From the sequence record MH051918: DNA of 50,048 nucleotides; one strand, 5' to 3'. The stretch comes from Escherichia phage vB_EcoS_IME347. This document shows, piece after piece, positions 1 through 49,879 of this stretch. The position numbers were made by a program, and so were the translations under genes. Below the pieces are notes generated by a model that was given only the letters and a program-made list of their open reading frames with translations, was not told the DNA's origin and ran no database searches. The stretch's first letter is position 1. Each line of letters begins with the position of its first letter.

Positions 1-18
1 CCTACCGACTTTTCCGTT

Positions 19-36
19 TTTAGCAAAAAGTGCTAT
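19..36 (-). promoter_or_regulatory. box copy without a canonical -10 partner inside the window
   Basis: The plus strand reads TTTAGCAAAAAGTGCTAT, identical to copy 49862-49879. The expected -10 position would fall left of base 1. Confidence 0.4.
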
Positions 37-37
37 C

Positions 38-139
38 GTGACAAGATTACATTGACTCGCTGTATATCACTGTCTACAATTTCCCGGATTTGTCGGCGTG
101 ACAAAATTACACCTCGCGCCCCTGAGAGTGAGATTACAT
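38..139 (+). repeat. three direct GTGACAARATTACAY repeats
   Basis: GTGACAAGATTACAT at 38-52, GTGACAAAATTACAC at 98-112, GTGAGATTACAT at 128-139. Start-to-start spacings are 60 and 30 nt. Confidence 0.6.
52..80 (+). promoter_or_regulatory. sigma70-like promoter TTGACT-17-TACAAT
   Basis: TTGACT at 52-57, a 17-nt spacer, TACAAT at 75-80. Flanked by GTGACAARATTACAY repeats. About 365 nt upstream of the first ORF. Confidence 0.55.
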
Positions 140-418
140 AACTCTATGATATATATAATAATAATAGTTAAATTTTATCTTTTATATACATAAAATATTG
201 TATTGTCATTGTGGCGTATAGGGTGTACACAATGTATATCTCAGATTTCGTGAAAATGATAATTCATGGACATTTATACAGTACTCTATTTGCATATGCT
301 TATATAGGGAAAACACAGTGACATTGTATACAGTGTGTACACCGCAAAAAAATGCGCCGCGAGCCATTGTAAACGCTGGATTCTTATGTCAACATAGCCA
401 CTTATTGACGCCCCGATA
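70..418. repeat. control region copy A (colinear with 31182-31529)
   Basis: Shared boxes are CTGTCTAC (70), GGCGTGACAAAATT (95), CTTTTATATA (179), a 48-nt box at 311-358, AAACGCT (371) and TGACGCCCCGATA (406). Confidence 0.7.
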
Positions 419-450
419 CGGGCATAGACACTGTAACTAAGGAGCACGTT

Positions 451-972
451 ATGAGCAATACCAATCAGCAACCACAAATCACCGACATGATTCGCCTTGC
501 CTGTCAAAATCACTACGCCGCAGGTGAAGCCATGTTCAGCTTCGACGCGCAACAAATGGCCTTCCACACCGTCAAGAAGTATGCGGAGCAATCCGGGATG
601 GATATCACCGACGAGCAGATCGACGAGGAAGCCGCTCGTTGGGTGGGGCAGAATACCGAGAACATTGCGAAGCGGTTCAAGCCGTCATTTGCGCAGCCGA
701 TCATTAAGCGATTCTTTGCTCACATCGGAAAGGCCGTCGTGGTGAATACCGGGCGCAACGATGCCAACGAACCGATGATTACCGTGACCATTACGGACGA
801 GGAAGTCGTGAAGCCGCAGCGCAAGAGCCGGGCGAAGAAAAAGCAATCCATCGGGGACATTCTGGATTCGTTCGTCGTGGACGTGTCGAAGCTCGGGGAT
901 TCGGAGTTGATGGTTCGCGATGTGAATGAAATCGTTCGGCAAATGAAGGAGCACATCCTGAAAGGTGAATAG
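451..972 (+). CDS. hypothetical early protein, 173 aa
   Basis: Track ORF. AAGGAG lies 6 nt before the ATG. First gene right of control region A. Its stop TAG is the TAG of box 969-986. No domain recognised. Confidence 0.8.
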   Translation: MSNTNQQPQITDMIRLACQNHYAAGEAMFSFDAQQMAFHTVKKYAEQSGMDITDEQIDEEAARWVGQNTENIAKRFKPSFAQPIIKRFFAHIGKAVVVNTGRNDANEPMITVTITDEEVVKPQRKSRAKKKQSIGDILDSFVVDVSKLGDSELMVRDVNEIVRQMKEHILKGE

Positions 973-1012
973 CACGAATTGCTAAAACAGGCGGAAGGGA
1001 ATCCGCTATTAT
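969..1012 (+). promoter_or_regulatory. box/-10 promoter cassette
   Basis: Box ATAGCACGAATTGCTAAA (969-986). Inverted repeat GCGGA/TCCGC (991-1006). 22 nt after TTGCTA comes TATTAT (1007-1012). Confidence 0.6.
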
Positions 1013-1048
1013 ACATCCATCGAAACGAAACACGGAAAGGGCAGCGAA

Positions 1049-1234
1049 ATGAAAATCATCAAAGTGGGTTATGACATCGTTAACGGCAAAAACTTTGCAT
1101 ACGGCGAAAACTTCCAGTTTGAAATCACCGAAGCGGATCGCATTAATTGGAACTTCGACCTGCTCAACGGCTTTGATCTTGAAATCACTCGTGAAGATTT
1201 CGACGCGCTGACTTGCGAGAAATACGAATACTAA
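1049..1234 (+). CDS. hypothetical small early protein, 61 aa
   Basis: Track ORF. Preceded by cassette 969-1012 and an A/C-rich leader. Its TAA overlaps the first base of the next box. Confidence 0.75.
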   Translation: MKIIKVGYDIVNGKNFAYGENFQFEITEADRINWNFDLLNGFDLEITREDFDALTCEKYEY

Positions 1235-1277
1235 TAGCACGAATTGCTAAAGCCCGGTCAATCGGATCGGGTATAGT
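1234..1277 (+). promoter_or_regulatory. box/-10 promoter cassette
   Basis: Box ATAGCACGAATTGCTAAA. Inverted repeat CCCG..CGGG in the spacer. 22 nt spacing to TATAGT (1272-1277). Confidence 0.6.
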
Positions 1278-1307
1278 AACCACATCGACAACAAAGAGGG
1301 TAGAGAA

Positions 1308-1556
1308 ATGAAAAAGGTCACGGTTAAGCTGTTAAATCACGGCGGGTATGACGGATTAAAGGGCGTTGAATTCCCGCAGGTAGTGGAAGGATTCGAACAT
1401 CCGACGCTGGATTACATTGACGTTCCGTTTGAGGAGTTGGAGCGCATCGGGTACGACAAGGCGAAAGGTCGCTGCTGTGGAAACCTGCCGGACTGCGCTG
1501 AAGGTAGCCCGTGCCTGACATTCTTCAAGTTTAGCGAAGCGGAGGTGATCGCATGA
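1308..1556 (+). CDS. hypothetical small early protein, 82 aa
   Basis: Track ORF with a GAGGG RBS, preceded by cassette 1234-1277. Confidence 0.8.
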   Translation: MKKVTVKLLNHGGYDGLKGVEFPQVVEGFEHPTLDYIDVPFEELERIGYDKAKGRCCGNLPDCAEGSPCLTFFKFSEAEVIA

Positions 1557-1753
1557 AAAAGGTTCCAATGTTCATCGCTGGCGGCATCGCCAAATATTAC
1601 GCCGTAATTGGCAATAAATTCTATTACTGGAGCGAATTCCAAAAGTGCTGGTGTGGCTCAGTTAACGATCCGGGGCAAAATGAGCGACGCCTCGAAAGGG
1701 CGATCCGTGAGGGTAAAGTTTTCCTAGCCACCATCAAGGGGGAAATCCTATGA
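1553..1753 (+). CDS. hypothetical small early protein, 66 aa
   Basis: Track ORF. ATGA start/stop overlap with the upstream gene. Confidence 0.75.
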   Translation: MKKVPMFIAGGIAKYYAVIGNKFYYWSEFQKCWCGSVNDPGQNERRLERAIREGKVFLATIKGEIL

Positions 1754-1860
1754 ATCCACTCGCTTTCGGCACGGCGATTTTCTTTCTGGCGACGGGGCAT
1801 TTTTGGCTGTTCATCGTCACCATGATCTTAATTGGCGCGGGAGCCTTTGACGATGATTAA
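1750..1860 (+). CDS. micro-ORF, 36 aa single-helix membrane peptide
   Basis: Hand-translated, below the track cutoff: MNPLAFGTAIFFLATGHFWLFIVTMILIGAGAFDDD. AAGGGGGA RBS 6 nt upstream. ATGA overlap with the upstream stop, and its end overlaps the next start. Confidence 0.6.
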   Translation: MNPLAFGTAIFFLATGHFWLFIVTMILIGAGAFDDD

Positions 1861-2053
1861 GATGAAATGTGTGCGGTCAACCTACGCGCTGTTTTCGGCT
1901 GGTGAGGTTTACGACTTCAAACGGGCTGGTGAGGCCGGGCGCTTCACGGTGTACGAGTACGAGCGCGAGGGCGCACTGTATCGCTTCGGTCTTGATGATG
2001 CCGGAGCTAACGAAACTGACGGTAATTTTATGCAATTCGAAGAGGTGAAATAA
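1853..2053 (+). CDS. hypothetical small protein, 66 aa (KxKC...G-x-Y family)
   Basis: Track ORF 1832..2053 (TTG start) trimmed to ATG 1853 (MIKMKCVRST...). GGAG lies about 10 nt upstream. Confidence 0.65.
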   Translation: MIKMKCVRSTYALFSAGEVYDFKRAGEAGRFTVYEYEREGALYRFGLDDAGANETDGNFMQFEEVK

Positions 2054-2250
2054 TGTACATTTTAACTGCTGTTCTGGTTCTGGTGATTCTGGTTCTGTAT
2101 GTGTGCGGCTGCTTCCTCATGCGGGCTTTCCTGCGGACGAATGACACAACCGATCAGGATAAGTGGAAGCCTGTCCTTACGTGGCCTGTCATCATGATTG
2201 ATGTTATTTGGGATTGTGCAATCAAAAACCACAAGAAATTTGAGTGGTAA
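2053..2250 (+). CDS. small membrane protein, 65 aa
   Basis: Track ORF with TAATG overlap. N-terminal hydrophobic helix ILTAVLVLVILVLYVCGCFL. Confidence 0.75.
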   Translation: MYILTAVLVLVILVLYVCGCFLMRAFLRTNDTTDQDKWKPVLTWPVIMIDVIWDCAIKNHKKFEW

Positions 2251-2294
2251 ATAGCACGAATAGCTAAACATGCCGGGCGGCAATCCGGCATAAT
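2251..2294 (+). promoter_or_regulatory. box/-10 promoter cassette
   Basis: Box ATAGCACGAATAGCTAAA. Inverted repeat GCCGG/CCGGC. 22 nt spacing to CATAAT (2289-2294). Confidence 0.6.
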
Positions 2295-2326
2295 GCAACC
2301 ACACCAAACGAAACGAGGAAAACGAA

Positions 2327-2584
2327 ATGACTCTCAACGAAGTGATCGAAATCATCTGTGGCTATGGCCTCCGCGCAAAACGCGAACTGCTGACTTGCGG
2401 CGCAACGCACGTAGCGATTGACGATAACGGCTCAATCTTCGCCTACAAAGGCGAGCCGCGCAACGACGACCCGGACGGTCAAGAGTGGTTGCCGGGACAC
2501 GGAGAGGGTGATCGCACTGTGATGTACTGCGGCGTGACCGAATATCCGGGCAACTGGAAAAGCTGCGTCTGGAAACTCCCGTAA
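2327..2584 (+). CDS. hypothetical small early protein, 85 aa
   Basis: Track ORF. Cassette 2251-2294 upstream, with a GAGGAAAA RBS. Confidence 0.8.
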   Translation: MTLNEVIEIICGYGLRAKRELLTCGATHVAIDDNGSIFAYKGEPRNDDPDGQEWLPGHGEGDRTVMYCGVTEYPGNWKSCVWKLP

Positions 2585-2628
2585 ATAGCACTTTTTGTTA
2601 AAACTGAATCTCGGGGCTGCGATATAGT
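2585..2628 (+). promoter_or_regulatory. box/-10 promoter cassette
   Basis: Box ATAGCACTTTTTGTTAAA. Inverted repeat GGGCT/AGCCC with TATAGT (2623-2628) in the loop. 22 nt spacing. Confidence 0.6.
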
Positions 2629-2658
2629 AGCCCTACACCAAACGAAGAGGGTAACACA

Positions 2659-2961
2659 ATGAAATTAGCACGTAGCGCAGTATTCGCAGTCGGCACGCAG
2701 GGCAATAAAAGCACTGCATTCCTGTACATTAACAGCAAGGGTGAAATCTCCCCGTTCTGGCGTAGCGAGTATCATGCGGACGGATGGAGCAAGCACGGCG
2801 AGCTTGACCTGATTTGCGGACAAAAGCCTATCAATCACGATCACTGGTACGGCATCGAACTTGACGGGGTGGAACGTGACATTACCATGATTCAATCGCA
2901 CGTTACCCGCGCTGAAGGTGTGGACTTTAAGCGAGCGCTGAAGTTCATCGGAAAGCACTAA
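2659..2961 (+). CDS. hypothetical early protein, 100 aa
   Basis: Track ORF. Cassette 2585-2628 upstream. The last codons (AAG CAC TAA) form part of box 2952-2969. Confidence 0.8.
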   Translation: MKLARSAVFAVGTQGNKSTAFLYINSKGEISPFWRSEYHADGWSKHGELDLICGQKPINHDHWYGIELDGVERDITMIQSHVTRAEGVDFKRALKFIGKH

Positions 2962-2996
2962 TTGTTAAAAGGGGGATTCATCCTGACTGGTATAAT
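2952..2996 (+). promoter_or_regulatory. box/-10 promoter cassette
   Basis: Box AAAGCACTAATTGTTAAA. Inverted repeat GGGGATT/AATCCCC. 23 nt spacing to TGgTATAAT (hexamer 2991-2996). Confidence 0.6.
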
Positions 2997-3027
2997 CCCC
3001 ACATCAACCAAGCGAGAGGAAAGCAGA

Positions 3028-3492
3028 ATGTTACGCAAAGAAGATATCACCTACCCAATCAGCTTCGTTAGCTTCGGAGTTGGCACCTTTACATTCACCA
3101 ACGAGAAAGGCGGCCACATGGTGTGCGCCAATGGCTACGAGCAACGCGAAATCGAATGCAGGGTGGGGGAATTTATAGAAAAAGCGAACAAGCACAACCC
3201 GGACAACGATCCTAAGCGTGACTACAACTACACGATGCCGGGCGCGGCGGCTGAGGTTAAGTCTGGTGAGTGCAGGGCTGAGTATATGCCAATCGGATCA
3301 ACTCTAACGGGCGTCCGCATGGATGATGGAGATTGGGCTGAACTGAGAATCACTCCTCGCCGGATTGAGGTTGATTCCGAGGTGATTACCTTCCTGCTGC
3401 ATGCGCACTACAGCACCAACACCAAGCAGTCACGTTTTGCCGGGGAAGTGAGCATGAAGCGCGATGCGATTGTTCGTTGGGAGAAGGCATAA
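3028..3492 (+). CDS. hypothetical early protein, 154 aa
   Basis: Track ORF 2962..3492 trimmed to ATG 3028, because 2952-2996 is a promoter cassette. GAGAGGAAAG RBS. Confidence 0.75.
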   Translation: MLRKEDITYPISFVSFGVGTFTFTNEKGGHMVCANGYEQREIECRVGEFIEKANKHNPDNDPKRDYNYTMPGAAAEVKSGECRAEYMPIGSTLTGVRMDDGDWAELRITPRRIEVDSEVITFLLHAHYSTNTKQSRFAGEVSMKRDAIVRWEKA

Positions 3493-3644
3493 TGGCAACT
3501 TGGTACTTAATCGCGATCACCTATTACGCCGGGGTTCAGCCGATCCCGTTCGACTCGCACAAGGCTTGCATTGATGCGCGAGAGGTAATCAAGAGAAACA
3601 ACCCGACAACCGCAAGCTTGCAGGTTGTATGCGTTAAGAAATAG
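3492..3644 (+). CDS. hypothetical small protein, 50 aa
   Basis: Hand-translated, below the track cutoff (MATWYLIAITYYAGVQPIPFDSHKAC...VCVKK). TAATG overlap. Its stop is the TAG of box 3641-3658. Confidence 0.6.
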   Translation: MATWYLIAITYYAGVQPIPFDSHKACIDAREVIKRNNPTTASLQVVCVKK

Positions 3645-3684
3645 CACGAATTGCTAAACCTTCCGCAAGGCCATTTGATATAGT
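3641..3684 (+). promoter_or_regulatory. box/-10 promoter cassette
   Basis: Box ATAGCACGAATTGCTAAA. Inverted repeat GGCCA/TGGCC (3669-3688). 22 nt spacing to TGaTATAGT (hexamer 3679-3684). Confidence 0.65.
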
Positions 3685-3724
3685 GGCCTTATTGAAGCAG
3701 AGCAACCAATCAGAGGCAATGACC

Positions 3725-3937
3725 ATGAAATTTTATCAAACGAGCCGTAACGCTGTTCTGAAATACTGGATTGAAAACGGCGTTGTGATGTGCAGCGGAA
3801 TGGCGGGCGAGCCGTTTAAGTCAGCAATGACCGTCGAAGATGTGGAATGGGCTGTCAGTCGCGGAATGATGGTTCCGGTTCAGAGCAACCCGTTCGACTA
3901 CTGGAATAAACTGAAGTCAGGGGATCTGTTTAAGTGA
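3725..3937 (+). CDS. hypothetical small early protein, 70 aa
   Basis: Track ORF 3683..3937 trimmed, because 3683-3718 is cassette and leader. ATG 3725 lies 8 nt after AGAGG. ATG 3719 is an alternative start. Confidence 0.7.
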   Translation: MKFYQTSRNAVLKYWIENGVVMCSGMAGEPFKSAMTVEDVEWAVSRGMMVPVQSNPFDYWNKLKSGDLFK

Positions 3938-4167
3938 TTATCGTCAACACCGAAACGGGCGAGGTCATGGATAACTGCATCGTTATCGACGACAAGCCCA
4001 AGCCGAAGAGCAAGGCAGGAACTTACGTTAGGACGGTCTGCAAGGCTCCCGGATGCGGGAATATTTACGAGGCGAAAGCCTCAGACCTGAAGCGCGGTTG
4101 GGGATTGACCTGCTGTAAGTCATGCGCAGCCGTGGTTCGCGAACTTAAAAAGAAAGGGCGTTGGTAA
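3934..4167 (+). CDS. small Cys-rich (putative Zn-binding) protein, 77 aa
   Basis: Track ORF. The GTG start overlaps the upstream TGA (GTGA). The motif CKAPGCG...CCKSC suggests a zinc ribbon. Confidence 0.6.
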   Translation: MIIVNTETGEVMDNCIVIDDKPKPKSKAGTYVRTVCKAPGCGNIYEAKASDLKRGWGLTCCKSCAAVVRELKKKGRW

Positions 4168-4355
4168 TGGAGCGTTTAAGCTACTGGCAGATACTGGATA
4201 AGGCCGGGCGACTGCGCGAGCAGCTTCGCGGGCTACCGGATAATGACCGAATGGAAATAATCGGTCGGGCGTTGCTGGATCTGGTTCACGGCGACGTGAC
4301 CTATCACTCATGCGGCAACGCACAATGGAACCTGACCTTTGAGGTGAAGAAATGA
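4167..4355 (+). CDS. hypothetical small protein, 62 aa
   Basis: Track ORF 4161.. trimmed to ATG 4167 (TAATG overlap with the upstream stop). Confidence 0.7.
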   Translation: MERLSYWQILDKAGRLREQLRGLPDNDRMEIIGRALLDLVHGDVTYHSCGNAQWNLTFEVKK

Positions 4356-4654
4356 ACAACTTGCACGAACTGAAGATTTTCCCGCGCCACTTCTACGGCG
4401 TGAAGATGGGGCAGAAGAAAGCAGAATTCAGGGTTGACGATCGCGGATTCAAAACTGGCGACACGCTCCGCCTTCGCGAATGGCACGAGGGCGACTTTAC
4501 CGGGCGGGAAATCAGCGTTGTGGTGACTGACGTAACCGACGTGACCGAGTTCATCAATCGGGCGAACGCCGAACTGTACAACGGGAACCGCTTCGTAATG
4601 CTGTCGTTCTTCGTGGTTCACGCGAGCCTTTGCGATATCCCGTACATCCGATAG
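4352..4654 (+). CDS. ASCH/DUF3850-like protein, 100 aa
   Basis: HELKIFPRHFYGVKMGQKKAEFRVDDRGFKTGDTLRLREW matches my memory of the DUF3850/ASCH N-terminal pattern. ATGA overlap. Its stop is the TAG of box 4651-4668. Confidence 0.65.
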   Translation: MNNLHELKIFPRHFYGVKMGQKKAEFRVDDRGFKTGDTLRLREWHEGDFTGREISVVVTDVTDVTEFINRANAELYNGNRFVMLSFFVVHASLCDIPYIR

Positions 4655-4694
4655 CACGAATTGCTAAAACAATAATCCGGGGCTATGCCATAAT
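4651..4694 (+). promoter_or_regulatory. box/-10 promoter cassette
   Basis: Box ATAGCACGAATTGCTAAA. Inverted repeat GGGGCTAT/ATAGCCCC. 22 nt spacing to TGcCATAAT (hexamer 4689-4694). Confidence 0.65.
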
Positions 4695-4725
4695 AGCCCC
4701 ACACCAAACGAAAGAGGAAGTAGAT

Positions 4726-5106
4726 ATGAAATTCAAATGCACAACCGACACAACGAAGAAATTCACTCCGGGCAAAGTCTACGAGACTTCGGCGAGCAAC
4801 GCACTTCACAACGTGGCTATCCGTGACGACTCCGGGCGGACTCGCGTATTTCGTGTAACTCATAACGGCGAAGGTATTCGCTGGAATGTCGGCGGCAATA
4901 AGTCTGCGGTTATGAAAAAGCTTCATCCTACCTTCCGCATCGACGAGTTGGGTACTGTCCATATCAGCGACGGCGAAGTAACCCGAGTCAAGATCGGCGG
5001 TTGGTGCGAGACTGCGGAATCTAAGCGCGAACGAATCACGAAAATCGCTATCGCGGCAACTCTGGTGCTGGTGAGTGTGGCTGTATTCGTGGCGAATCAC
5101 TTCTGA
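4726..5106 (+). CDS. hypothetical protein with C-terminal TM helix, 126 aa (KxKC family N-terminus)
   Basis: Track ORF 4630.. trimmed to ATG 4726, downstream of cassette 4651-4694. AGAGGAAG RBS. C-terminal helix IAIAATLVLVSVAVFV. Confidence 0.75.
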   Translation: MKFKCTTDTTKKFTPGKVYETSASNALHNVAIRDDSGRTRVFRVTHNGEGIRWNVGGNKSAVMKKLHPTFRIDELGTVHISDGEVTRVKIGGWCETAESKRERITKIAIAATLVLVSVAVFVANHF

Positions 5107-5154
5107 TTTAAAAGGGGAATCTCTCTGAGCGGTTCCCCATAACAAGGAATTCAA

Positions 5155-5280
5155 ATGGTAGACGTGAATCACTGGAATGAACCGCCAAAGCATGACGTTC
5201 TGTTTTGGTTTCTCGGGTTGCTGATAACGCTCGTTATCATCTTGAAAGGCGTGATGGTGGCGGAATGGATTCTGACCTGA
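5155..5280 (+). CDS. micro-ORF, 41 aa single-helix membrane peptide
   Basis: Hand-translated: MVDVNHWNEPPKHDVLFWFLGLLITLVIILKGVMVAEWILT. AAGGA RBS 6 nt upstream. Confidence 0.55.
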   Translation: MVDVNHWNEPPKHDVLFWFLGLLITLVIILKGVMVAEWILT

Positions 5281-5474
5281 TTAACTACGAAGATGCAGCG
5301 CGTGACGCTATCGATGGTATGCTGCCAAATTCGAAGCGTGTGGCTCACTATCGCGGTTTTAAGGGTTCACCTGTTAAACTGTATTGCGAGATTTTGAAGC
5401 TCTCAGAAGTCGATACAGCGCGTTTAGAGGCATACGATTTTAAGCGTTTTTCGATAACCATCGAAACCAAATAG
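5265..5474 (+). CDS. hypothetical small protein, 69 aa
   Basis: Track ORF 5205.. trimmed to ATG 5265 (MDSDLINYED...). Overlaps the end of the micro-ORF by 16 nt. Its stop is the TAG of box 5471-5488. Confidence 0.6.
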   Translation: MDSDLINYEDAARDAIDGMLPNSKRVAHYRGFKGSPVKLYCEILKLSEVDTARLEAYDFKRFSITIETK

Positions 5475-5514
5475 CACGAATTGCTAAAAACCTATCAGGG
5501 GAATGCGCTATGAT
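5471..5514 (+). promoter_or_regulatory. box/-10 promoter cassette
   Basis: Box ATAGCACGAATTGCTAAA. Inverted repeat GGGGAAT/ATTCCCC. 22 nt spacing to TATGAT (5509-5514). Confidence 0.6.
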
Positions 5515-5544
5515 TCCCCTACACCAACAAGCGAGGACGACAAA

Positions 5545-5976
5545 ATGAAACATCTGGTATGCATTGTAGAAGGTTGCGGCCTGGAAGGAATCGGCGGTGA
5601 ACTCGGTCACTACATGATCGCGAAGAATGACCAAGACCGAAGCGGCGACGTTGAGATAACCTCCCGCCACGCACTCCCTTACATCATGGAGACTCTCGGT
5701 GATGGAATGTATCAGGGTTATGGCTCCAGCGCTATTTACAAGCAATACCCGATCCGCAAGCGTCTGGTTCGCGCATTCTTTAAGTACGCGCATCACGATT
5801 GCAAGCTTTCACGCAATGCGGCGAAAAGTTGGGCGCGAGCTATGGCTGACGGATATTTCTTCCGTGATGGTCAGGCGATCAGCGAAATGATTCAGACAAT
5901 CATGATCGACTATGACGGCGATTTCGGTCAAGAGTCATTCGATAGCTACGTTGCCGACGAGATCTCTTACTGGTAA
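5545..5976 (+). CDS. hypothetical early protein, 143 aa
   Basis: Track ORF 5503.. trimmed to ATG 5545, downstream of cassette 5471-5514. Confidence 0.75.
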   Translation: MKHLVCIVEGCGLEGIGGELGHYMIAKNDQDRSGDVEITSRHALPYIMETLGDGMYQGYGSSAIYKQYPIRKRLVRAFFKYAHHDCKLSRNAAKSWARAMADGYFFRDGQAISEMIQTIMIDYDGDFGQESFDSYVADEISYW

Positions 5977-6020
5977 ATAGCACGAATTGCTAAAACTTGC
6001 TCAGGGGCATTTGTTATAGT
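5977..6020 (+). promoter_or_regulatory. box/-10 promoter cassette
   Basis: Box ATAGCACGAATTGCTAAA. Inverted repeat GGGGCA/TGTCCC (one G.T position). 22 nt spacing to TGtTATAGT (hexamer 6015-6020). Confidence 0.65.
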
Positions 6021-6059
6021 GTCCCTCGTTGAGTTAAGCAACCAATAAAGGAAAAAGCG

Positions 6060-6590
6060 ATGATTATCAACGCATACGGTAAAGAGTTTCACACAAACGC
6101 GCCTTCCGGCCTTGTCTGTATTTTCGACTACGACGGGACGCTTTCGGACGGTTCGCACCGACTTCACCTCCTGCCGAAGAAGGATTTACACCTCACTGAA
6201 AGCTGGAGCGAATTCAACCTTGCATCGGTGGACGACGCCCCGATCGAATCAACTATCAAGGTAATGAATGCGATGTATGCAGCCGGGCATTGTGTCATTA
6301 TTTTGACCGGACGCAGCGATGAAGTTGAAGCGGAATCCCGAGTTTGGTTAGATCGTCACGGCGCGAAGTATGACTTCATGATCATGCGTCGCCACGACGA
6401 CAACCGCAAAGACACGGTTATCAAAGAGGAAGTTCTCCGCGAGATCGGGTTGGAGCGAATCCTCGCGGCTTGGGACGATAGCCCTTCAGTTATTCCACAC
6501 TTTAGGAATATTGGAATAACTACATATGCCGTAACTGACTACGGCGACAACGTTCACGATCACCTTAAATCACACGGAGTAGAAAAATAA
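6060..6590 (+). CDS. HAD-superfamily phosphatase (nucleotidase / polynucleotide 3'-phosphatase-like), 176 aa
   Basis: HAD motif I in VCIFDYDGTLSD. ILTGR and a C-terminal WDD are consistent with motifs II-IV. Cassette 5977-6020 upstream. Confidence 0.65.
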   Translation: MIINAYGKEFHTNAPSGLVCIFDYDGTLSDGSHRLHLLPKKDLHLTESWSEFNLASVDDAPIESTIKVMNAMYAAGHCVIILTGRSDEVEAESRVWLDRHGAKYDFMIMRRHDDNRKDTVIKEEVLREIGLERILAAWDDSPSVIPHFRNIGITTYAVTDYGDNVHDHLKSHGVEK

Positions 6591-7174
6591 TGAGCAAAGT
6601 AATCATTCTCAACGCGCCGCCAGCATGTGGCAAAGACACGATAGGTTCAATCATCGCGGATATGAATCAGATTTATGGCGTTCGCATGTTGAGCTTCAAA
6701 GCGCCGATGTTCGAGATCGCCCGAGCTATCCTCGGTGATGCGAACTTTGATTATTTCATGTTCCTTTATAACGATCGGCTCCATAAGGAAAAGCCCGATT
6801 CCATTCTGAACGGTAAAAGCCCGCGCGAGTTCATGATCTGGATTAGCGAGGCAATCATTAAGCCAGAATTCGGCAATGATTATTTCGGGCGTCGAATGGT
6901 TGAGGCTGTCAAGTCAGGCACTGCCCCGGCGATTATCACGGACGGCGGATTCACTGAAGAGACAATCGCACTAATTGAAGCTGGTATTCAGGTTCACGTC
7001 TGCCGACTGCACCGCGACGGATTCACGTTTGAAGGCGACTCGCGAAACTATCTTCACCTGCCTGTGGGCTGGCAAGGCGTAAACGGCTACACCGAAGAAG
7101 ATTTCCAGTTACGTGACGGTGATCCTGATTACACTGCCAGCGTGATTACCGGGAAATACCTGCGTCACTTCTAA
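6590..7174 (+). CDS. P-loop kinase, dNMP-kinase-like, 194 aa
   Basis: Walker A in NAPPACGKDT. The overall pattern (GKDT...ITDGGFTEE...RDGD) recalls T4 gp1-type dNMP kinases. TAATG coupling to the HAD gene. Confidence 0.6.
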   Translation: MSKVIILNAPPACGKDTIGSIIADMNQIYGVRMLSFKAPMFEIARAILGDANFDYFMFLYNDRLHKEKPDSILNGKSPREFMIWISEAIIKPEFGNDYFGRRMVEAVKSGTAPAIITDGGFTEETIALIEAGIQVHVCRLHRDGFTFEGDSRNYLHLPVGWQGVNGYTEEDFQLRDGDPDYTASVITGKYLRHF

Positions 7175-7217
7175 TAGCACGAATTGCTAAAAACTCGGCG
7201 GGGTAAGCTGTTATAGT
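7174..7217 (+). promoter_or_regulatory. box/-10 promoter cassette
   Basis: Box ATAGCACGAATTGCTAAA. Inverted repeat GGGGTAA/TTACCCC. 22 nt spacing to TGtTATAGT (hexamer 7212-7217). Confidence 0.65.
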
Positions 7218-7253
7218 TACCCCATCGAAAACAACCAATCAGAGGAAACGCGA

Positions 7254-7439
7254 ATGATGCAAGTCACCAGCTACACCCAATCGACAGCCGAAGCAATCAG
7301 CGAACTTCGAAAGGTTGCCGACGCGCTGGAGAAAGGCGAGGCTATGCTTTATAGCGGATCAGTTACCAACACCAAGCGTTACGGCGAAGCCCGTGAATAC
7401 GCTATCGAAATCACAGTAGTCACCGATAAGGAGATGTAA
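7254..7439 (+). CDS. hypothetical small early protein, 61 aa
   Basis: Track ORF. Cassette 7174-7217 upstream, with the AACCAATCAGAGG leader. Confidence 0.75.
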   Translation: MMQVTSYTQSTAEAISELRKVADALEKGEAMLYSGSVTNTKRYGEAREYAIEITVVTDKEM

Positions 7440-7441
7440 AA

Positions 7442-7645
7442 ATGAGCAACACAATCAAACTTCGCACGACTCACGCCGATTGCCCTTGGATTACTCCGGG
7501 CAAGATTTACGAGGCCGAATTGGTTGCGAAAGATGGATTTGACGGACTGTATCGGCTGAAGAATCCAGACTTCGGAGAGGTGCTCACTGCAATTGAGAAC
7601 TCCTGTCATTTGGGCGGGGAAAGTTGGGAAGTAGTCACCGAATAG
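7442..7645 (+). CDS. hypothetical small protein, 67 aa (KxKC family-like)
   Basis: Track ORF with an AAGGAG RBS. Contains IKLRTTHADCPWITPGKIYEAE. Its stop is the TAG of box 7642-7659. Confidence 0.75.
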   Translation: MSNTIKLRTTHADCPWITPGKIYEAELVAKDGFDGLYRLKNPDFGEVLTAIENSCHLGGESWEVVTE

Positions 7646-7685
7646 CACGAATTGCTAAAAGTTCCGCAAGGGCATTTGATAGAAT
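7642..7685 (+). promoter_or_regulatory. box/-10 promoter cassette
   Basis: Box ATAGCACGAATTGCTAAA. Inverted repeat GGGCA/TGCCC. 22 nt spacing to TGaTAGAAT (hexamer 7680-7685). Confidence 0.65.
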
Positions 7686-7718
7686 GCCCTTATTGAAACG
7701 AAGCAAAGGAAAATAGAA

Positions 7719-7928
7719 ATGAAACCAGCAATTTTCGAAGCACGTCGCACTTATGGCGCAATCCTCTCCGGGATTCAGTACGAAGTAATGAGCAGTGAGG
7801 ATGGTTACTATATTCAGGTGGACGACGACGGCACTTGCTACGAGGTTATTTTCGACAAGTACGATCCCGATGTTTGCATGTTGAAACATGCGCAGTTAAT
7901 CCGATTCGATCGAGTGGAGGAAGCATAA
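7719..7928 (+). CDS. hypothetical small early protein, 69 aa
   Basis: Track ORF. Cassette 7642-7685 upstream. Confidence 0.75.
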   Translation: MKPAIFEARRTYGAILSGIQYEVMSSEDGYYIQVDDDGTCYEVIFDKYDPDVCMLKHAQLIRFDRVEEA

Positions 7929-8260
7929 TGTTACAGGTCAACCTTTCAGAGAAACAGGCTCGCGAGTTTTACGACTTCTGCTTGCGCGTCGCTGGTGTGC
8001 AGGACAATCCAGTAATCCGGGAAATGTTCAGCGTTATTGAACGCCAGATCCTGCCGGACTCAACCAACAAGGCGGAGTTCGCAGCGTGGAGGAGCAAGCG
8101 AATCACTCCGGCAATTGTCGAAGCGTGGAAGCGCAAGAACGGATCGCCTCGCATCGTGTTTGCGAACGGTGAACCTCGTCGAAATATGGGTTGCGTCGTT
8201 CTCGGTGAATATGCTGATCTGGCAACCGGGCGAATGGTAACGGTGATGCATCATGATTAA
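7928..8260 (+). CDS. hypothetical protein, 110 aa
   Basis: Track ORF 7835.. trimmed to ATG 7928 (TAATG overlap with the upstream stop). Confidence 0.7.
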   Translation: MLQVNLSEKQAREFYDFCLRVAGVQDNPVIREMFSVIERQILPDSTNKAEFAAWRSKRITPAIVEAWKRKNGSPRIVFANGEPRRNMGCVVLGEYADLATGRMVTVMHHD

Positions 8261-8408
8261 GTTTATCCACACTTTCAAAGTGTCGTCCGGCAAAGAGCGG
8301 AAAGAGATCGTGAAGGTTTACGGGAGTCCGGTTAAGGCAAAAGAGCAATTGCGTTTGCTTGGTGGTCGGATTGATGTTGTTAAACATGTTGAATTCTGGA
8401 GTAAGTAA
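8253..8408 (+). CDS. hypothetical small protein, 51 aa
   Basis: Hand-translated: MIKFIHTFKVSSGKERKEIVKVYGSPVKAKEQLRLLGGRIDVVKHVEFWSK. GGTGA RBS 6 nt upstream. Fills an otherwise unexplained gap. Confidence 0.55.
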   Translation: MIKFIHTFKVSSGKERKEIVKVYGSPVKAKEQLRLLGGRIDVVKHVEFWSK

Positions 8409-8409
8409 G

Positions 8410-8834: not shown

Positions 8835-8860
8835 CTCGAATCTCTGAACGGTGATATCAT
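8831..8860 (+). promoter_or_regulatory. sigma70-like promoter TTGACT-18-TGaTATCAT
   Basis: TTGACT at 8831-8836, an 18-nt spacer, and an extended -10 with TATCAT at 8855-8860. Confidence 0.55.
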
Positions 8861-9306: not shown

Positions 9307-9308
9307 CC

Positions 9309-9533: not shown

Positions 9534-9537
9534 AACT

Positions 9538-9561: not shown

Positions 9562-9580
9562 ACGTCTGGAGTATGATAAA

Positions 9581-9598
9581 ATAGCACGAAATGTTAAA
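9581..9598 (+). promoter_or_regulatory. box copy in the terS leader
   Basis: ATAGCACGAAATGTTAAA lies between TGaTAAAAT (9574-9582) and the GGAGGA RBS. No -10 lies 22 nt downstream. Confidence 0.45.
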
Positions 9599-30053: not shown

Positions 30054-30084
30054 TGGTGTTTCCTCGTTTCGTTTTGATGAATGC

Positions 30085-30128
30085 AGTATAGCCCCGTTTC
30101 CGGGGCTTGTTTTAGCAATTCGTGCTGT
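30085..30128 (-). promoter_or_regulatory. box/-10 promoter cassette
   Basis: Read on the minus strand: ACAGCACGAATTGCTAAA. Inverted repeat GCCCCG/CGGGGC. 22 nt spacing to TATACT. Drives the secreted-protein gene. Confidence 0.6.
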
Positions 30129-32686: not shown

Positions 32687-32729
32687 ACAGCACAAATAGC
32701 TAAACATGTAATTCTCGGGGTGTTATAAT
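32687..32729 (+). promoter_or_regulatory. box/-10 promoter cassette
   Basis: Box ACAGCACAAATAGCTAAA. Inverted repeat GGGGTG/CACCCC with TGtTATAAT in the loop. 21 nt spacing. Sits upstream of erf. Confidence 0.6.
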
Positions 32730-32767
32730 GCACCCCGTAGACAAGAAACCAATCAGGAGATAACGAA

Positions 32768-36839: not shown

Positions 36840-36873
36840 AAAAAACGCGTAACAGGAGTTTACCCGCTACGCG
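36840..36873 (-). terminator. terminator-like hairpin enclosing the primase -10
   Basis: Read on the minus strand: CGCGTA, a 16-nt loop, TACGCG, then T6 and ATTGGAG. Confidence 0.45.
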
Positions 36874-36900
36874 CTTTTGTGTTTTAGCTATTTGTGCTCT
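36857..36900 (-). promoter_or_regulatory. box/-10 promoter cassette (primase)
   Basis: Read on the minus strand: AGAGCACAAATAGCTAAA. 22 nt spacing to TAAACT. The hexamer lies in the loop of CGCGTA/TACGCG, which is followed by T6. Confidence 0.55.
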
Positions 36901-37340: not shown

Positions 37341-37383
37341 ATAGCACTTTTTGTTAAAACTAACTAATCGATGCGTGTATTAT
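37341..37383 (+). promoter_or_regulatory. box/-10 promoter cassette (helicase)
   Basis: Box ATAGCACTTTTTGTTAAA. 21 nt spacing to TATTAT (37378-37383). Inverted repeat GCGTG/CGCAC. Confidence 0.55.
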
Positions 37384-37387
37384 ACAG
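37379..37387 (-). promoter_or_regulatory. CTGTATAAT -10-like nonamer (leftward, HTH gene)
   Basis: Reverse complement of ATTATACAG. Overlaps the rightward TATTAT of the helicase cassette. Confidence 0.4.
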
Positions 37388-37420
37388 TCAACGCACGAGT
37401 AACGCAAAGGATTAAGAACA

Positions 37421-39472: not shown

Positions 39473-39894
39473 TTACAGATAAGGGCGATTATTTAGAGTT
39501 TTACGAGCGCGACCCGAGCGACACGAGAAAGGAGGTAGTTCACCAAATTGAGAGCACTTCCTTTTTGAAAGTTCGACACCCTGACTTGCTGTTTTGGCAT
39601 AGTGTCAACGAGAACGAGAAGAGCAAGGCGACCGCAATGATTGATCAGCAATCCGGCTTATTGAAGGGAGTTAGTGACTTCGTTTTCCTGATTGGTTTCA
39701 ATCACCGATACCCGTTCGCCGCAATCGAACTTAAGCGCGTGAATAAGTCCGGCAAAGGCAAGGCGTCACCCGTAAGCGATGAACAGAAAGCCTTCTTGCG
39801 GAAGGTCAGGGAGCGAGGCGGGTTCGCCGCAGTAGCCTACGGGGTGGAGCAGTTAAAACTCGCAGTAGCTGAAATGCTCAAACAGCACGAATAG
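39469..39894 (+). CDS. VRR-NUC domain nuclease, 141 aa
   Basis: GVSDFVFL...AAIELKR gives the G-x-(S/P)-D...E-x-K pattern of VRR-NUC. ATGA overlap with the helicase gene. Confidence 0.7.
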   Translation: MITDKGDYLEFYERDPSDTRKEVVHQIESTSFLKVRHPDLLFWHSVNENEKSKATAMIDQQSGLLKGVSDFVFLIGFNHRYPFAAIELKRVNKSGKGKASPVSDEQKAFLRKVRERGGFAAVAYGVEQLKLAVAEMLKQHE

Positions 39895-39925
39895 CTAAAA
39901 CAGCCGGAAAGGAATCCGGCATAAT
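39882..39925 (+). promoter_or_regulatory. box/-10 promoter cassette (dam)
   Basis: Box ACAGCACGAATAGCTAAA, which overlaps the VRR-NUC stop. Inverted repeat GCCGGA/TCCGGC. 22 nt spacing to CATAAT. Confidence 0.6.
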
Positions 39926-39954
39926 CACCACATCGAAACAACGGAGAGAAACAA

Positions 39955-40668: not shown

Positions 40669-40910
40669 TGAATGAGAAAACTGTTTGCCTGAATGAATTT
40701 GGTCAATGGATGCTGTTCCGTGGGCTGGCGTGTTATGCGCTGGAGCGTCACGGCTTGACGGAAAAGGAATTGGGTTGCTCCCTTTGGGAATTCACGGAGT
40801 CGCTTGATATGTCATTCGAGGAAATTCGAAGTCTTGATTTGGCTCAGTGGGCTACAAAAGTAATGGCGGACGCCGAAGAGCTTAGAAACGAGATCGTGAA
40901 AAAGCACTAA
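40668..40910 (+). CDS. hypothetical small protein, 80 aa
   Basis: Track ORF with TAATG overlap with dam. Its last codons (AAG CAC TAA) form box 40901-40918. Confidence 0.7.
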   Translation: MNEKTVCLNEFGQWMLFRGLACYALERHGLTEKELGCSLWEFTESLDMSFEEIRSLDLAQWATKVMADAEELRNEIVKKH

Positions 40911-40944
40911 TTGCTAAACGTACCCGGCGCAAGTCGGGTATTAT
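40901..40944 (+). promoter_or_regulatory. box/-10 promoter cassette
   Basis: Box AAAGCACTAATTGCTAAA. Inverted repeat CCCG/CGGG. 22 nt spacing to TATTAT (40939-40944). Confidence 0.6.
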
Positions 40945-40975
40945 TGTTTTATTGAAACGAAACGGAGAATCACAA

Positions 40976-41173: not shown

Positions 41174-41438
41174 AGAATCTGGAAGGCAAGCCGTTTGGAG
41201 TCACGCAAAAGAAACGGGGCTGGCGGACGGGATCGCACTAATTGCTAAATACTTCGATATAAAAGACGTTAGTATTATCGGCAACGGGAAGATAACCTTC
41301 ATCGAAGAGCTTCCCCGGAAGTGCCACCGAGTCCCGGCAACTCCCGGACTTGAGTTTTACCGGGAGGAGGGTAAGCGAATCATGCAAGAATTTAAGGCGA
41401 GCAAAAATGACAAGAGAACTTCCCGGCTTAAACGGTAA
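41166..41438 (+). CDS. hypothetical small protein, 90 aa
   Basis: Track ORF with a GTG start that overlaps the upstream end by 8 nt. Contains an internal box/-10 cassette at 41232-41275. Confidence 0.55.
   Translation: MIKESGRQAVWSHAKETGLADGIALIAKYFDIKDVSIIGNGKITFIEELPRKCHRVPATPGLEFYREEGKRIMQEFKASKNDKRTSRLKR
41232..41275 (+). promoter_or_regulatory. box/-10 cassette located inside an ORF
   Basis: Box ATCGCACTAATTGCTAAA, encoded as GIALIAKY. 22 nt spacing to TAGTAT (41270-41275). No obvious inverted repeat. Confidence 0.4.
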
Positions 41439-42877: not shown

Positions 42878-42922
42878 ATAGCACAAATAGCTAAAGACAA
42901 ATCAGGGGTAACGAGTTATAGT
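42878..42922 (+). promoter_or_regulatory. box/-10 promoter cassette
   Basis: Box ATAGCACAAATAGCTAAA. Inverted repeat GGGGTAA/TTACCCC (the same arms as the copy at 7201-7224). 23 nt spacing to TATAGT. Confidence 0.6.
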
Positions 42923-42951
42923 TACCCCACACAAACAAAGGAGATTTAGCA

Positions 42952-46566: not shown

Positions 46567-46594
46567 CGTTTTAACTCCTTATTGGACGGGGTAA

Positions 46595-46638
46595 ATTATA
46601 CCCCGCCCATACTACACGCTTTTAGCTATTTGTGCCAT
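46595..46638 (-). promoter_or_regulatory. box/-10 promoter cassette
   Basis: Read on the minus strand: ATGGCACAAATAGCTAAA. Inverted repeat GGGGTA/TACCCC with TATAAT across the loop. 22 nt spacing. Drives the DUF3987-like gene. Confidence 0.6.
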
Positions 46639-47058: not shown

Positions 47059-47096
47059 CGATTCATTCCTTCTGATTGGTTATCTTGAATAAGGCC

Positions 47097-47140
47097 ACTA
47101 TATCAAATGGCCTTACGGCAATATTAACAAATCGTGCTAT
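47097..47140 (-). promoter_or_regulatory. box/-10 promoter cassette
   Basis: Read on the minus strand: ATAGCACGATTTGTTAAT. GGCCAtttgatatagTGGCC is identical to the hairpin at 3669-3688. 22 nt spacing to TGaTATAGT. Confidence 0.65.
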
Positions 47141-47601: not shown

Positions 47602-47640
47602 CTTTATTTCCTTGTTTTGTCGTTTCGTTTCGATGGGGTG

Positions 47641-47684
47641 ATAATATCAAATCACCCCGAGGTTGTTTTAGCAATTCGTGCTAT
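47641..47684 (-). promoter_or_regulatory. box/-10 promoter cassette
   Basis: Read on the minus strand: ATAGCACGAATTGCTAAA. Inverted repeat GGGGTGA/TCACCCC. 22 nt spacing to TGaTATTAT. Confidence 0.65.
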
Positions 47685-48798: not shown

Positions 48799-48832
48799 TG
48801 CCTTAATCTCCGTGATTCGTTTCGATGGGGTA

Positions 48833-48876
48833 ATTATGCCAAACTACCCCGATCGCGTTTTAACAAAAAGTGCTAT
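48833..48876 (-). promoter_or_regulatory. box/-10 promoter cassette
   Basis: Read on the minus strand: ATAGCACTTTTTGTTAAA. Inverted repeat GGGGTA/TACCCC. 22 nt spacing to TGgCATAAT. Confidence 0.65.
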
Positions 48877-49437: not shown

Positions 49438-49471
49438 TTTTGGGAAATCTCTCTGATTGGTTGATGTGTTA

Positions 49472-49515
49472 AGTATGCCCCGAATCCGATCAGGGCGTTT
49501 AGCAATTCGTGCGGT
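49472..49515 (-). promoter_or_regulatory. box/-10 promoter cassette
   Basis: Read on the minus strand: ACCGCACGAATTGCTAAA. Imperfect inverted repeat GCCCTG/CGGGGC. 22 nt spacing to CATACT. Confidence 0.55.
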
Positions 49516-49794: not shown

Positions 49795-49835
49795 GAGTTG
49801 CTCCGTTGTTTTGTGTGCTTCGTTTCGATGAGTGT

Positions 49836-49879
49836 ATTATGCCAAACCAAGCCGATCGATGTTTAGCAAAAAGTGCTAT
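49836..49879 (-). promoter_or_regulatory. box/-10 promoter cassette
   Basis: Read on the minus strand: ATAGCACTTTTTGCTAAA. 22 nt spacing to TGgCATAAT. No clear inverted repeat. First leftward promoter of the right arm. Confidence 0.6.

Follow-up and report, generated by a model that had tools for sequence, protein, structure and literature searches.

The window, a stretch of 50,048 nucleotides (50 kb; sequence record MH051918) from Escherichia phage vB_EcoS_IME347, a T1-like siphophage of the family Drexlerviridae, contains approximately 22 intergenic cassettes in which a conserved box (ATAGCACGAATTGCTAAAA) is followed by a variable G+C-rich hairpin, a -10 hexamer, a predicted transcription start (+1), a Shine-Dalgarno (SD) sequence and an ATG start codon. 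At the level of the cassette family the hairpin is selected for pairing, for which the evidence is strong, and it folds as RNA of the sense strand. The cassette is probably a compact terminator-promoter junction between two co-directional genes, in which the hairpin would bound the upstream message, and its box has the sequence and geometry expected of a marbox in class II position, at approximately -41. The closest relatives of the window in GenBank are SRT8, IME-JL8 and BrunoManser (genus Sertoctavirus), with an identity of only ~78% that concerns the structural genes; over the early region the alignment with these relatives is limited to short patches.

Anatomy of the cassettes

The 15-nucleotide (nt) core of the box, GCACGAATTGCTAAA, is present in 27 copies in the window when up to three mismatches are allowed, against 1.9 expected, and the -10 hexamer starts exactly 35 nt past the G of the GCAC in the box. 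The cassettes of the window were combined with those of T1, Chapo and BrunoManser and of 118 IMG/VR loci retrieved by the exact box, which yielded a sample of 271 distinct copies, 203 of them having a TAnnnT-type hexamer at box+35. The profile of these 203 cassettes is composed of A-T-A, an invariant GCAC, a variable A/T-rich stretch, TG, an invariant AAA, and then approximately 18 variable bases. Positions -35 to -30 read AAAAcn, a G is found at -14 in 86% of the cassettes, the hexamer takes the forms TATAGT, TATAAT and CATAAT, the discriminator is C-rich, and A-rich single-stranded sequence lies on both sides of the hairpin. The predicted +1 is an A at offset 47 in 84% of the cassettes and is followed by an A-rich leader, CATCGAAACGAAAC, and then by the SD sequence and the ATG, which are located ~20-30 nt downstream of the +1. 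All of this is accommodated in an intergenic space of only ~75 nt, the stop codon of the upstream gene being found at box offset -2 in 93 of 154 cassettes, usually as the TAG of aaTAGCAC.

The preliminary description of this DNA, made from its letters alone, had distinguished two layouts, and these are real. In layout 1 the stem extends to offset 34-37 from the box, so that it stops just short of the hexamer or reaches 1-3 nt into it (boxes at 972, 1237, 2254, 39885 and 40904, and at 30125 and 49512 on the minus strand); in layout 2 it ends at offset 46, which corresponds to -1, with the hexamer located in the loop or in the 3' arm.

The leaders themselves are conserved. CATCGAAACGAAAC lies directly past the predicted +1 (box offsets 46-60), and AACCAATCAGAGG, at offsets of ~60-75 from the box, precedes several start codons (cassettes at 3644, 7177, 32690, 47137 and 49512). 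Both may be signals for translation or RNA stability.

Selection for base pairing

Behind nearly every box copy in the window lies a G+C-rich hairpin, with energies of -9 to -21 kcal/mol, and the folding of individual cassettes is better than that of shuffled sequences by 2 to 5.4 standard deviations. The two focal cassettes, from which a compensatory base change had been reported, and a third paralogue of their sub-family are the following (MFE, minimum free energy):

3644..3691, plus strand: focal cassette 1, box 3644-3658, arms AAGGCCATT (3667-3675) and AGTGGCCTT (3682-3690), hexamer TATAGT (3679-3684) inside the hairpin, predicted +1 A3691, outer helix CTTC/GAAG (3661-3664 and 3694-3697), MFE -21.3 kcal/mol, z -3.5
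7645..7692, plus strand: focal cassette 2, box 7645-7659, arms AAGGGCATTT (7668-7677) and GAATGCCCTT (7682-7691), hexamer TAGAAT (7680-7685), predicted +1 A7692, MFE -19.5 kcal/mol, z -3.6
47090..47137, minus strand: third paralogue, box GCACGATTTGTTAAT (47137-47123), arms AAGGCCATT (47114-47106) and AGTGGCCTT (47099-47091), hexamer TATAGT (47102-47097), -15.6 kcal/mol

The two strings on which the reported change was based match the window exactly at 3661-3696 and 7661-7696. They differ at four of 36 positions, two of which make up a paired change from C-G to G-C (3671/3686 versus 7671/7686), so that the fifth pair of focal cassette 2 is G-C where its equivalent in focal cassette 1 is C-G, while a third difference converts a T:G wobble into T:A. 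Taken alone, this pair of cassettes is suggestive but weak and not decisive, with a probability of arising by chance that we roughly estimate at p = 0.03. All the other arm pairs that had been listed as varying in sequence while keeping their pairing were found in the window: GGGGATT/AATCCCC (2972-3000), GGGGAAT/ATTCCCC (5498-5519), GGGGCTAT/ATAGCCCC (4679-4700), GGGGTAA/TTACCCC at two places (7200-7223 and 42905-42927), GGGGTG/CACCCC (32717-32736), GCCGGA/TCCGGC (39903-39920) and, on the minus strand, GCCCCG/CGGGGC (30091-30106).

The conclusion drawn from the focal pair, namely that the inverted repeat is selected as a structure, is borne out by a swap test, by orthologues picked through their flanking genes, and by pair counts. 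In the swap test the 5' part of each cassette was joined to the 3' part of another: the mean best-stem score of the 203 distinct cassettes is 18.6, versus 11.7-13.7 in these chimeras (standard deviation of the mean ~0.13). Since the stems fall in chimeras that keep the composition, base composition is no explanation for them; each 5' arm matches the 3' arm of its own cassette, and the arms vary from one cassette to the next. This result bears on the view that the pairing is functionless and merely the by-product of a G-rich spacer and a C-rich discriminator that are each under selection for promoter activity. The 5' arms are indeed G-rich and the 3' arms C-rich, in line with the C-rich discriminator of the profile, but chimeras of the same composition lose their stems, and hairpins confined to the spacer leave the discriminator uninvolved; we therefore give this explanation practically no credence.

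Cassettes of the window, BrunoManser and T1 that were recognised as orthologous from the neighbouring genes, irrespective of their hairpins, pair with differing arm sequences. Between the recE-like and erf-like genes the window has CGGGGTG/CACCCCG versus TGAGGTG/CACCTCA in T1, a change of two pairs on both sides, and the BrunoManser orthologue also pairs, with arms different from those of the window. Similarly, the cassette with its box at 47681 has the arms GGGGTGAT/ATCACCCC in the window versus GGGAGTAA/TTACTCCC in T1. Covariation was scored for the cassettes of the window and its relatives, on stem-selected subsets. In one alignable register the main helix is 92.6% paired, both sides have changed in seven of its nine pairs, and the covariation score reaches 0.474, where shuffles give 0.217 +/- 0.02 and slid partners no more than 0.19. 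Over the four register groups together, 43 double changes were counted along nearest-neighbour links, versus 0-7 per slid register.

Strand and transcripts that carry the hairpin

The score cut-off of the mismatch analysis was passed by 104 distinct hairpins. Those with a single internal mismatch comprise 30 with G:T or T:G, three with A:C or C:A and five with other mismatches, to be read against a chimera composition baseline of 146:61:220 for the same three classes. Both transition-derived mismatch types arise about equally by mutation, and the excess of wobbles therefore points to the sense strand. Among the hairpins lying wholly in the spacer, the 4-nt loops free of the hexamer are of the GNRA type in 15 of 25 cases and of the UNCG type in three of 25, as read on the sense strand, and they vary among related cassettes (gaaa, gaga and gcaa; gcga and gaaa) while mostly remaining GNRA. 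Such loops, together with G:U wobbles, are hallmarks of RNA hairpins, and of terminator hairpins especially.

The antisense strand of the same cassettes would show C:A mismatches and TYNC loops, which disfavours two of the four roles suggested in the preliminary description, the antisense terminator and the symmetric DNA cruciform; the roles exerted through read-through RNA (3' stabiliser, attenuator, pause site) remain. The proposal of a terminator on the other strand had its origin in the TTTTAGC found there next to the hairpin, and in the spacer layout the reverse strand does read as a hairpin, 2-4 nt and TTTTAGCAATT. In the commoner layout, however, the T-run is placed ~10 nt from the stem, most cassettes are faced by no antisense promoter, and the wobble pairs and GNRA loops would become C:A mismatches and TYNC on that strand, all of which makes an antisense terminator very unlikely.

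Which transcripts carry the hairpin is indicated by its distribution. A stem score of at least 15 is found in 22 of 22 window cassettes located behind a co-directional open reading frame (ORF), the 47137 copy being counted by its -15.6 kcal/mol, versus a strong stem in none of the six other box copies of the window, which serve as controls:

49829..49876, minus strand: first leftward promoter, with box and -10 hexamer but no hairpin (stem score 9) and no co-directional upstream gene
37344..37391, plus strand: helicase promoter in a divergent intergenic region, box and TATTAT present, G+C-rich hairpin absent (stem score 13)
41235..41282, plus strand: copy within a coding region, with box and hexamer TAGTAT, no hairpin
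9584..9598, plus strand: box just after a canonical terminator (9538-9557 and T-run), lacking both a hairpin and a -10 hexamer at the expected offset
16100-16114 and 19908-19922, minus strand: two antisense boxes, no strong stem

The same box and -10 hexamer thus also occur hairpin-free; the hairpin serves the upstream transcript and not the function of the promoter. With stems that stop at -1, or just ahead of the hexamer or in its first bases, the cassette's own transcript is without the hairpin. This agrees with the earlier expectations that the predicted +1 lies just past the 3' arm, the exceptions being the primase copy and approximately 20 copies that have an additional outer helix, and that the hairpin, being upstream of the predicted +1, is possible only in RNA reading in from the upstream gene.

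The same controls bear on an action at the DNA level, in which a cruciform or single-strand hairpin would alter spacer geometry or the melting of the promoter. Such an action would fit the overlap of the repeat with spacer, -10 hexamer and discriminator, and MarA has been reported to distort base pairing beside its site at one promoter. A cruciform requires pairing of both strands, though, which is at odds with 30 G:T against three A:C mismatches; the hairpin-free first leftward and divergent helicase promoters indicate that the promoter does not need it; and two quite different placements of the hairpin would need to have an equal geometric effect. We regard this action as unlikely. As a link between marbox and hairpin, the distortion by MarA was rejected, that case being a sigma-28 promoter with MarA inside the core promoter and not comparable.

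Some of the hairpin-free copies have features of their own. Conservation of the copy at 41235-41282 extends to BrunoManser, T1 and several IMG/VR loci; this copy may act as an internal promoter, or it may reflect a constraint on the encoded peptide that mimics the box. The boxes at 16114 and 19922 are oriented opposite to the late structural genes and lie immediately upstream of the regions of the major capsid and the tail chaperone; the capsid-side box is conserved in T1 (~15062-15089), and the 19922 copy has a correctly spaced TACAGT as well as a G at -14 and could thus function as an antisense promoter. At the helicase promoter, a weak long-loop inverted repeat (TGCGT...ACGCA, 37359-37395, plus strand) surrounds the -10 hexamer, and T1 has ACGTTTAC...GTAAACGT at the same place. 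This promoter adjoins a gene for a Cro-like regulator (36884-37327, minus strand; weak Pfam match to P22_Cro), and the inverted repeat may be an operator for this neighbouring helix-turn-helix protein.

Terminator features and a proposed boundary role

The hairpins (114 distinct ones from the window and its relatives) average -12 kcal/mol with stems of 7-9 bp, and they possess the G+C-rich stem and short loop of intrinsic terminators. A U-tract of at least five T in 8 nt is found only in the primase copy and a few others: the mean number of T in the 8 nt that follow is 3.0 in layout 1 and 1.4 in layout 2, and the T-rich tail of layout 1 is the -10 hexamer of the next promoter itself. A terminator scan of the region 1-10 kb flagged no sense-strand cassette hairpin, and Rfam at its gathering threshold gave no match in the whole window. 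The earlier statement that a U-tract is absent except from the primase copy holds for most copies but not for the one at 40904, which is followed by TATTGTTTTATTG. The primase copy occupies the same place in its cassette as the other hairpins, carries an additional TTTTTT, and is conserved in BrunoManser and T1; its sequence is that of a canonical intrinsic terminator. In the GenBank record of T1, the orthologue of this copy and one spacer hairpin (41978-42000) are annotated as rho-independent terminators.

From these sequence features we infer a boundary function of the hairpin, through termination or stabilisation. The hairpin would form only in transcripts that were initiated further upstream and continue past the end of the preceding gene; there it would mark the 3' boundary of the upstream message and act as an attenuator of read-through, with an effect expected to be strong in copies that have a T-rich run behind the stem, such as the primase copy, and weak in the others, and it may also block 3'-to-5' exonucleases. 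Each small early gene would thereby become an insulated expression unit. The 18 bp between box and -10 hexamer would not be read by the promoter, such that a hairpin could lodge there, occupying either the spacer or the 3' half of the spacer together with the -10 hexamer and the discriminator, with its end at -1.

Several points weigh against this boundary function or against parts of its evidence. Intrinsic termination by E. coli RNA polymerase normally needs a U-tract, and most layout 2 hairpins are followed by a ACAUCGAAAC-like sequence with 0-1 U; with no U-tract in most copies efficient termination is therefore unlikely, and 'attenuator' may mean only 'RNA stabiliser'. A literature search for transcript-end data from T1-like phages found none. 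The association of the hairpin with an upstream ORF is weak over all loci (82% versus 64%), a comparison made with a 45-codon ORF cut-off and many truncated loci, so that its 'no ORF' class is contaminated by short ORFs and truncated loci. G:T is the least harmful mismatch in single-stranded DNA as well. Finally, the register score and the double changes, as counts from stem-selected subsets, are subject to ascertainment bias, which is limited by the fact that 159 of the 203 cassettes pass the stem filter.

Much of the evidence for a message boundary would be shared by a processing or 5'-stabilising element, in which read-through RNA would be cut in the A/U-rich box just before the hairpin, and the hairpin, placed at the 5' end so formed, would shield the downstream message from RNase E. 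This reading requires the same features, a sense-strand structure present only in read-through transcripts, and the hairpin is flanked on both sides by single-stranded A-rich sequence. It is nevertheless improbable: nothing points to a cleavage site, RNase III would need longer stems than these of 6-10 bp, the downstream gene has a promoter of its own whose transcripts are hairpin-free, and the primase copy is clearly a terminator.

A role in recombination or mobility is a further possibility. When the window from 1 to 9600 is compared with BrunoManser from 41000 to 49298, the cassettes are the best conserved pieces (89-94% over 65-84 bp), and most genes between them are without nucleotide similarity, a mosaic that would fit gene shuffling at the cassettes. 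These could thus be linkers whose G-run/C-run hairpin is read in single-stranded DNA by a structure-specific nuclease or recombinase, as the authors who described the comparable PeSL cassettes of T4-type phages (see below) suggested for those elements; VRR-NUC and Erf proteins are encoded by the phage, and at the site that matches the 42881 cassette, T1 has another hairpin layout together with a different downstream gene. However, homology in the conserved box and 5' untranslated region would be enough for shuffling, making a variable hairpin needless; GNRA and UNCG loops are hallmarks of RNA; and the absence of the hairpin exactly where there is no upstream transcript is not predicted. A recombination or mobility signal is accordingly judged slightly less probable still than a processing element.

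Tight packing of a terminator against the next gene is a general habit of these genomes: in the late region of T1 (for example at 14237-14269 and 16107-16137), the SD sequence of the next gene (TTTTTTTATggagaaatc...ATG) comes immediately behind a canonical terminator.

The box as a putative marbox

The marbox, which is the binding site of the host stress regulators MarA, SoxS and Rob, has the consensus GCAnnWWnTGnnAAA, in which up to two mismatches are allowed (PMC12052159). This pattern has 23 exact matches in the window, one of them at 972-986, versus 0.49 expected. The box agrees with the marbox at every specified position, the variant GCACTTTTTGTTAAA fits too, and the two halves of the box correspond to the recognition elements GCAC and YAAA. 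Among substitutions at the W positions in the 203-cassette profile, 14 of 17 are A-to-T and the middle stays A/T; the spacer variants GAA, AAA and TTT interchange at orthologous sites. The box is in forward orientation and overlaps the -35 region, with its centre ~-40 from the predicted +1.

The core promoter has a matching geometry. No recognisable -35 hexamer is present in the 203-cassette profile, and a simple sigma-70 scan found almost no cassettes. Class II marbox promoters have no recognisable -35 hexamer either, sigma region 4 being displaced from the -35 region (PMC10268841), and this displacement would leave the 18 bp spacer between marbox and hexamer free to vary. In the micF promoter of E. 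coli, the class II example used for cryo-electron microscopy structures, GCACTGAATGTCAAA is followed by a TAGAAT that starts exactly 35 nt past the G, the same spacing as in the phage cassettes. The promoter would thus be driven by a class II marbox-type activator site at ~-41, together with the G at -14 and the -10 hexamer.

Candidate activators are the host proteins Rob, MarA and SoxS. An AraC-family protein encoded in the window was sought by tblastn, with approximate query sequences, which gave only matches with E > 0.4, and none was detected by Pfam among 19 selected window ORFs, including three regulator candidates; with no such protein encoded by the phage, constitutive host Rob or inducible MarA/SoxS are therefore the natural candidates. 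A literature search for a link of marboxes or of SoxS, MarA or Rob with phage early genes found none. Combining promoter and hairpin, we propose tentatively, and with a little less than even confidence, that early T1-like promoters are class II marbox promoters which recruit Rob, MarA or SoxS (RamA in Klebsiella and Salmonella) and have a built-in hairpin that closes the preceding message, the small early genes being insulated, portable units.

Other assignments of the box were considered and rejected. TTGCTA as a -35 element is separated from the hexamer by a 22 bp spacer in essentially all copies, and the box as a -10 element (TGnTAAAAC) is without the T at -7, position 16 being a T in nine of 203 cassettes. 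The box can itself form a small hairpin of 5 bp (UAGCA/UGCUA), but the TAGCT variants retain it only in part, and the half-palindromic nature of the marbox accounts for it. To our knowledge, the box does not fit a CRP, FNR, Fis, IHF, LexA or DnaA site.

Comparison with known systems

The closest known counterparts are the promoter-early stem-loop (PeSL) cassettes of the T4-type phages RB49, phi1, PST and nt-1 (Arbiol et al. 2010, PMC2839356; Comeau et al. 2014, PMC4122927). One of their stem-loops reduced read-through into lacZ to a degree comparable with the rrnB T1 terminator (PMC2839356); only for RB49 and phi1 have a terminator effect and the formation of mini-circles, by recombination between cassettes, been demonstrated. 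The order of elements is the same as in the window (upstream stop codon, promoter, stem-loop, SD, ATG), GGGG...CCCC arms with G-T pairs are typical, and the stem-loop is mostly located between -35 and -10 or overlaps the -10, which corresponds to the two layouts described above. PeSLs likewise recur in front of small orphan early genes, whose sequences are less conserved than the cassettes, and have been proposed to be terminators or attenuators of upstream transcription. In contrast, the phages studied here are Drexlerviridae siphoviruses and no sequence homology is shown. PeSL promoters have the sigma-70 consensus and an AT-rich upstream region, which was not found here, where no -35 hexamer is suitably spaced and the cassettes have, at ~-41, a marbox-like site. 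PeSL activity is known from reporter tests, the present cassettes from their sequence. The cassettes of the window can thus be placed by sequence with the PeSL-like composites of promoter and stem-loop, from which they differ in their promoter.

The box itself has been described in phage TLS, as a 21-nt intergenic direct repeat (aaATAGCACnnnTTGnTAAAA) with 18 copies located ~76 nt before start codons, and was also reported in T1, Rtp and Rogue1; the 2024 paper, which deals with the repeat alone, suggests a stoperator, an enhancer site or an UP element, and lists the function of the repeat among the open questions on T1-like phages (PMC11447400). The repeat is the same box, with the same orientation, the same distance of ~76 nt to start codons and the same spacer variants GAA, AAA and TTT. 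A word search of that paper for 'stem-loop' gave no hit, and its section on transcriptional elements contains no hairpin, fixed -10 hexamer or link to the marbox (PMC11447400). Searches of the literature on the box sequence, on promoter stem-loops of T1-like phages and on Drexlerviridae transcriptomes gave nothing on point besides this paper. The published TLS box, the precedent of the PeSLs, the 22 bp that separate TTGCTA from the hexamer and the fit of the box to a class II marbox had all been missed in the preliminary description.

With micF-type class II promoters the cassettes share the fit to GCAnnWWnTGnnAAA, the elements GCAC and YAAA, the forward orientation at ~-41, the 35-nt spacing and the lack of a -35 hexamer; they differ in that the phage sites are repeated ~20 times per 50 kb and have an activator that is a candidate only. 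We know of no host marbox promoter with an embedded hairpin. Intrinsic terminators and stabiliser hairpins of the repetitive extragenic palindromic (REP) type resemble the cassette hairpins in having a G+C-rich stem of 6-11 bp just past a stop codon and in the frequency of GNRA and UUCG loops, and the primase copy is laid out as a full terminator, but most cassette copies are without a U-tract and any tail is the -10 hexamer of the next promoter.

T1-like phages are common contaminants of laboratories and fermentations and candidates for phage therapy, and very little work has been done on their transcription. Self-contained units, each composed of a promoter and a boundary, probably make up their early regions. 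By analogy with the T4-type phages, which have the same design, it appears to have arisen in two unrelated phage groups, and insulated units would help explain how orphan genes are shuffled without upsetting their neighbours. The identification of the marbox is a more novel and more directly testable lead than the hairpin. If correct, it would answer the published question on the function of the 21-nt repeat and tie phage early expression to the host mar/sox/rob regulon, whose members are regulators of multidrug resistance, which would be relevant where phages and antibiotics are combined.

Catalogue of cassettes with a hairpin

Besides the focal sub-family, the following cassettes with a hairpin were identified in the window:

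972..1019, plus strand: spacer hairpin, arms GGCGGA (990-995) and TCCGCT (1002-1007), hexamer TATTAT (1007-1012)
1237..1284, plus strand: spacer hairpin, arms GCCCGGTC (1252-1259) and GATCGGGT (1265-1272), hexamer TATAGT (1272-1277)
2254..2301, plus strand: spacer hairpin, arms ATGCCGGG (2270-2277) and TCCGGCAT (2284-2291), hexamer CATAAT (2289-2294)
2588..2635, plus strand: box variant GCACTTTTTGTTAAA, arms GGGGCTGC (2613-2620) and GTAGCCCT (2627-2634), hexamer TATAGT (2623-2628)
2955..3002, plus strand: long loop, arms GGGGATT (2972-2978) and AATCCCC (2994-3000), TATAAT (2991-2996)
4654..4701, plus strand: arms GGGGCTAT (4679-4686) and ATAGCCCC (4693-4700), hexamer CATAAT (4689-4694), z -4.2
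5474..5521, plus strand: arms AGGGGAAT (5497-5504) and ATTCCCCT (5513-5520), hexamer TATGAT (5509-5514)
5980..6027, plus strand: G:U pairs in the arms, AGGGGCATT (6003-6011) and AGTGTCCCT (6018-6026), hexamer TATAGT (6015-6020)
7177..7224, plus strand: arms GGGGTAA (7200-7206) and TTACCCC (7217-7223), hexamer TATAGT (7212-7217)
30078..30125, minus strand: spacer hairpin AGCCCCG-gaaa-CGGGGCT (30107-30090) with GNRA loop, hexamer TATACT (30090-30085)
32690..32737, plus strand: between recE-like and erf-like genes, arms CGGGGTGT (32716-32723) and GCACCCCG (32730-32737)
36842..36897, minus strand: primase copy, box 36897-36883, 15-bp hairpin 36877-36842 with hexamer TAAACT in the loop, followed by TTTTTTATTGGAG, z -5.4
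39885..39932, plus strand: spacer hairpin, arms GCCGGA (39903-39908) and TCCGGC (39915-39920), hexamer CATAAT (39920-39925)
40904..40951, plus strand: spacer hairpin GTACCCGGC-gcaa-GTCGGGTAT (40920-40941) with GNRA loop, followed by the T-rich run TATTGTTTTATTG
42881..42928, plus strand: arms GGGGTAAC (42905-42912) and GTTACCCC (42921-42928)
46583..46635, minus strand: arms TGGGCGGGGTA (46609-46599) and TACCCCGTCCA (46593-46583), hexamer TATAAT (46600-46595)
47634..47681, minus strand: arms GGGGTGAT (47658-47651) and ATCACCCC (47642-47635), hexamer TATTAT (47646-47641)
48826..48873, minus strand: box variant GCACTTTTTGTTAAA, arms GGGGTAGTT (48850-48842) and AATTACCCC (48835-48827)
49465..49512, minus strand: spacer hairpin, arms GCCCTGA (49496-49490) and TCGGGGC (49483-49477), hexamer CATACT (49477-49472)

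Other features of the early region

When the ends of the window are joined into a circle, the box that is cut off at position 33 has no continuation as a cassette across the end. The region 30-450 is non-coding, is A+T-rich from ~140 to 330, contains the repeated motifs CGTGACAAGATTACA, CGTGACAAAATTACA, GTGTACAC and TGTATACA, and has a good sigma-70-like promoter at 52-80 (TTGACT-17-TACAAT); it may be a control or origin region between divergent early units. The early gene at 4352-4654 (plus strand) encodes a protein with a DUF3850/ASCH-type domain (Pfam E = 2.5e-15), and its homologue in a related phage is named 'RNA-binding protein' in RefSeq.

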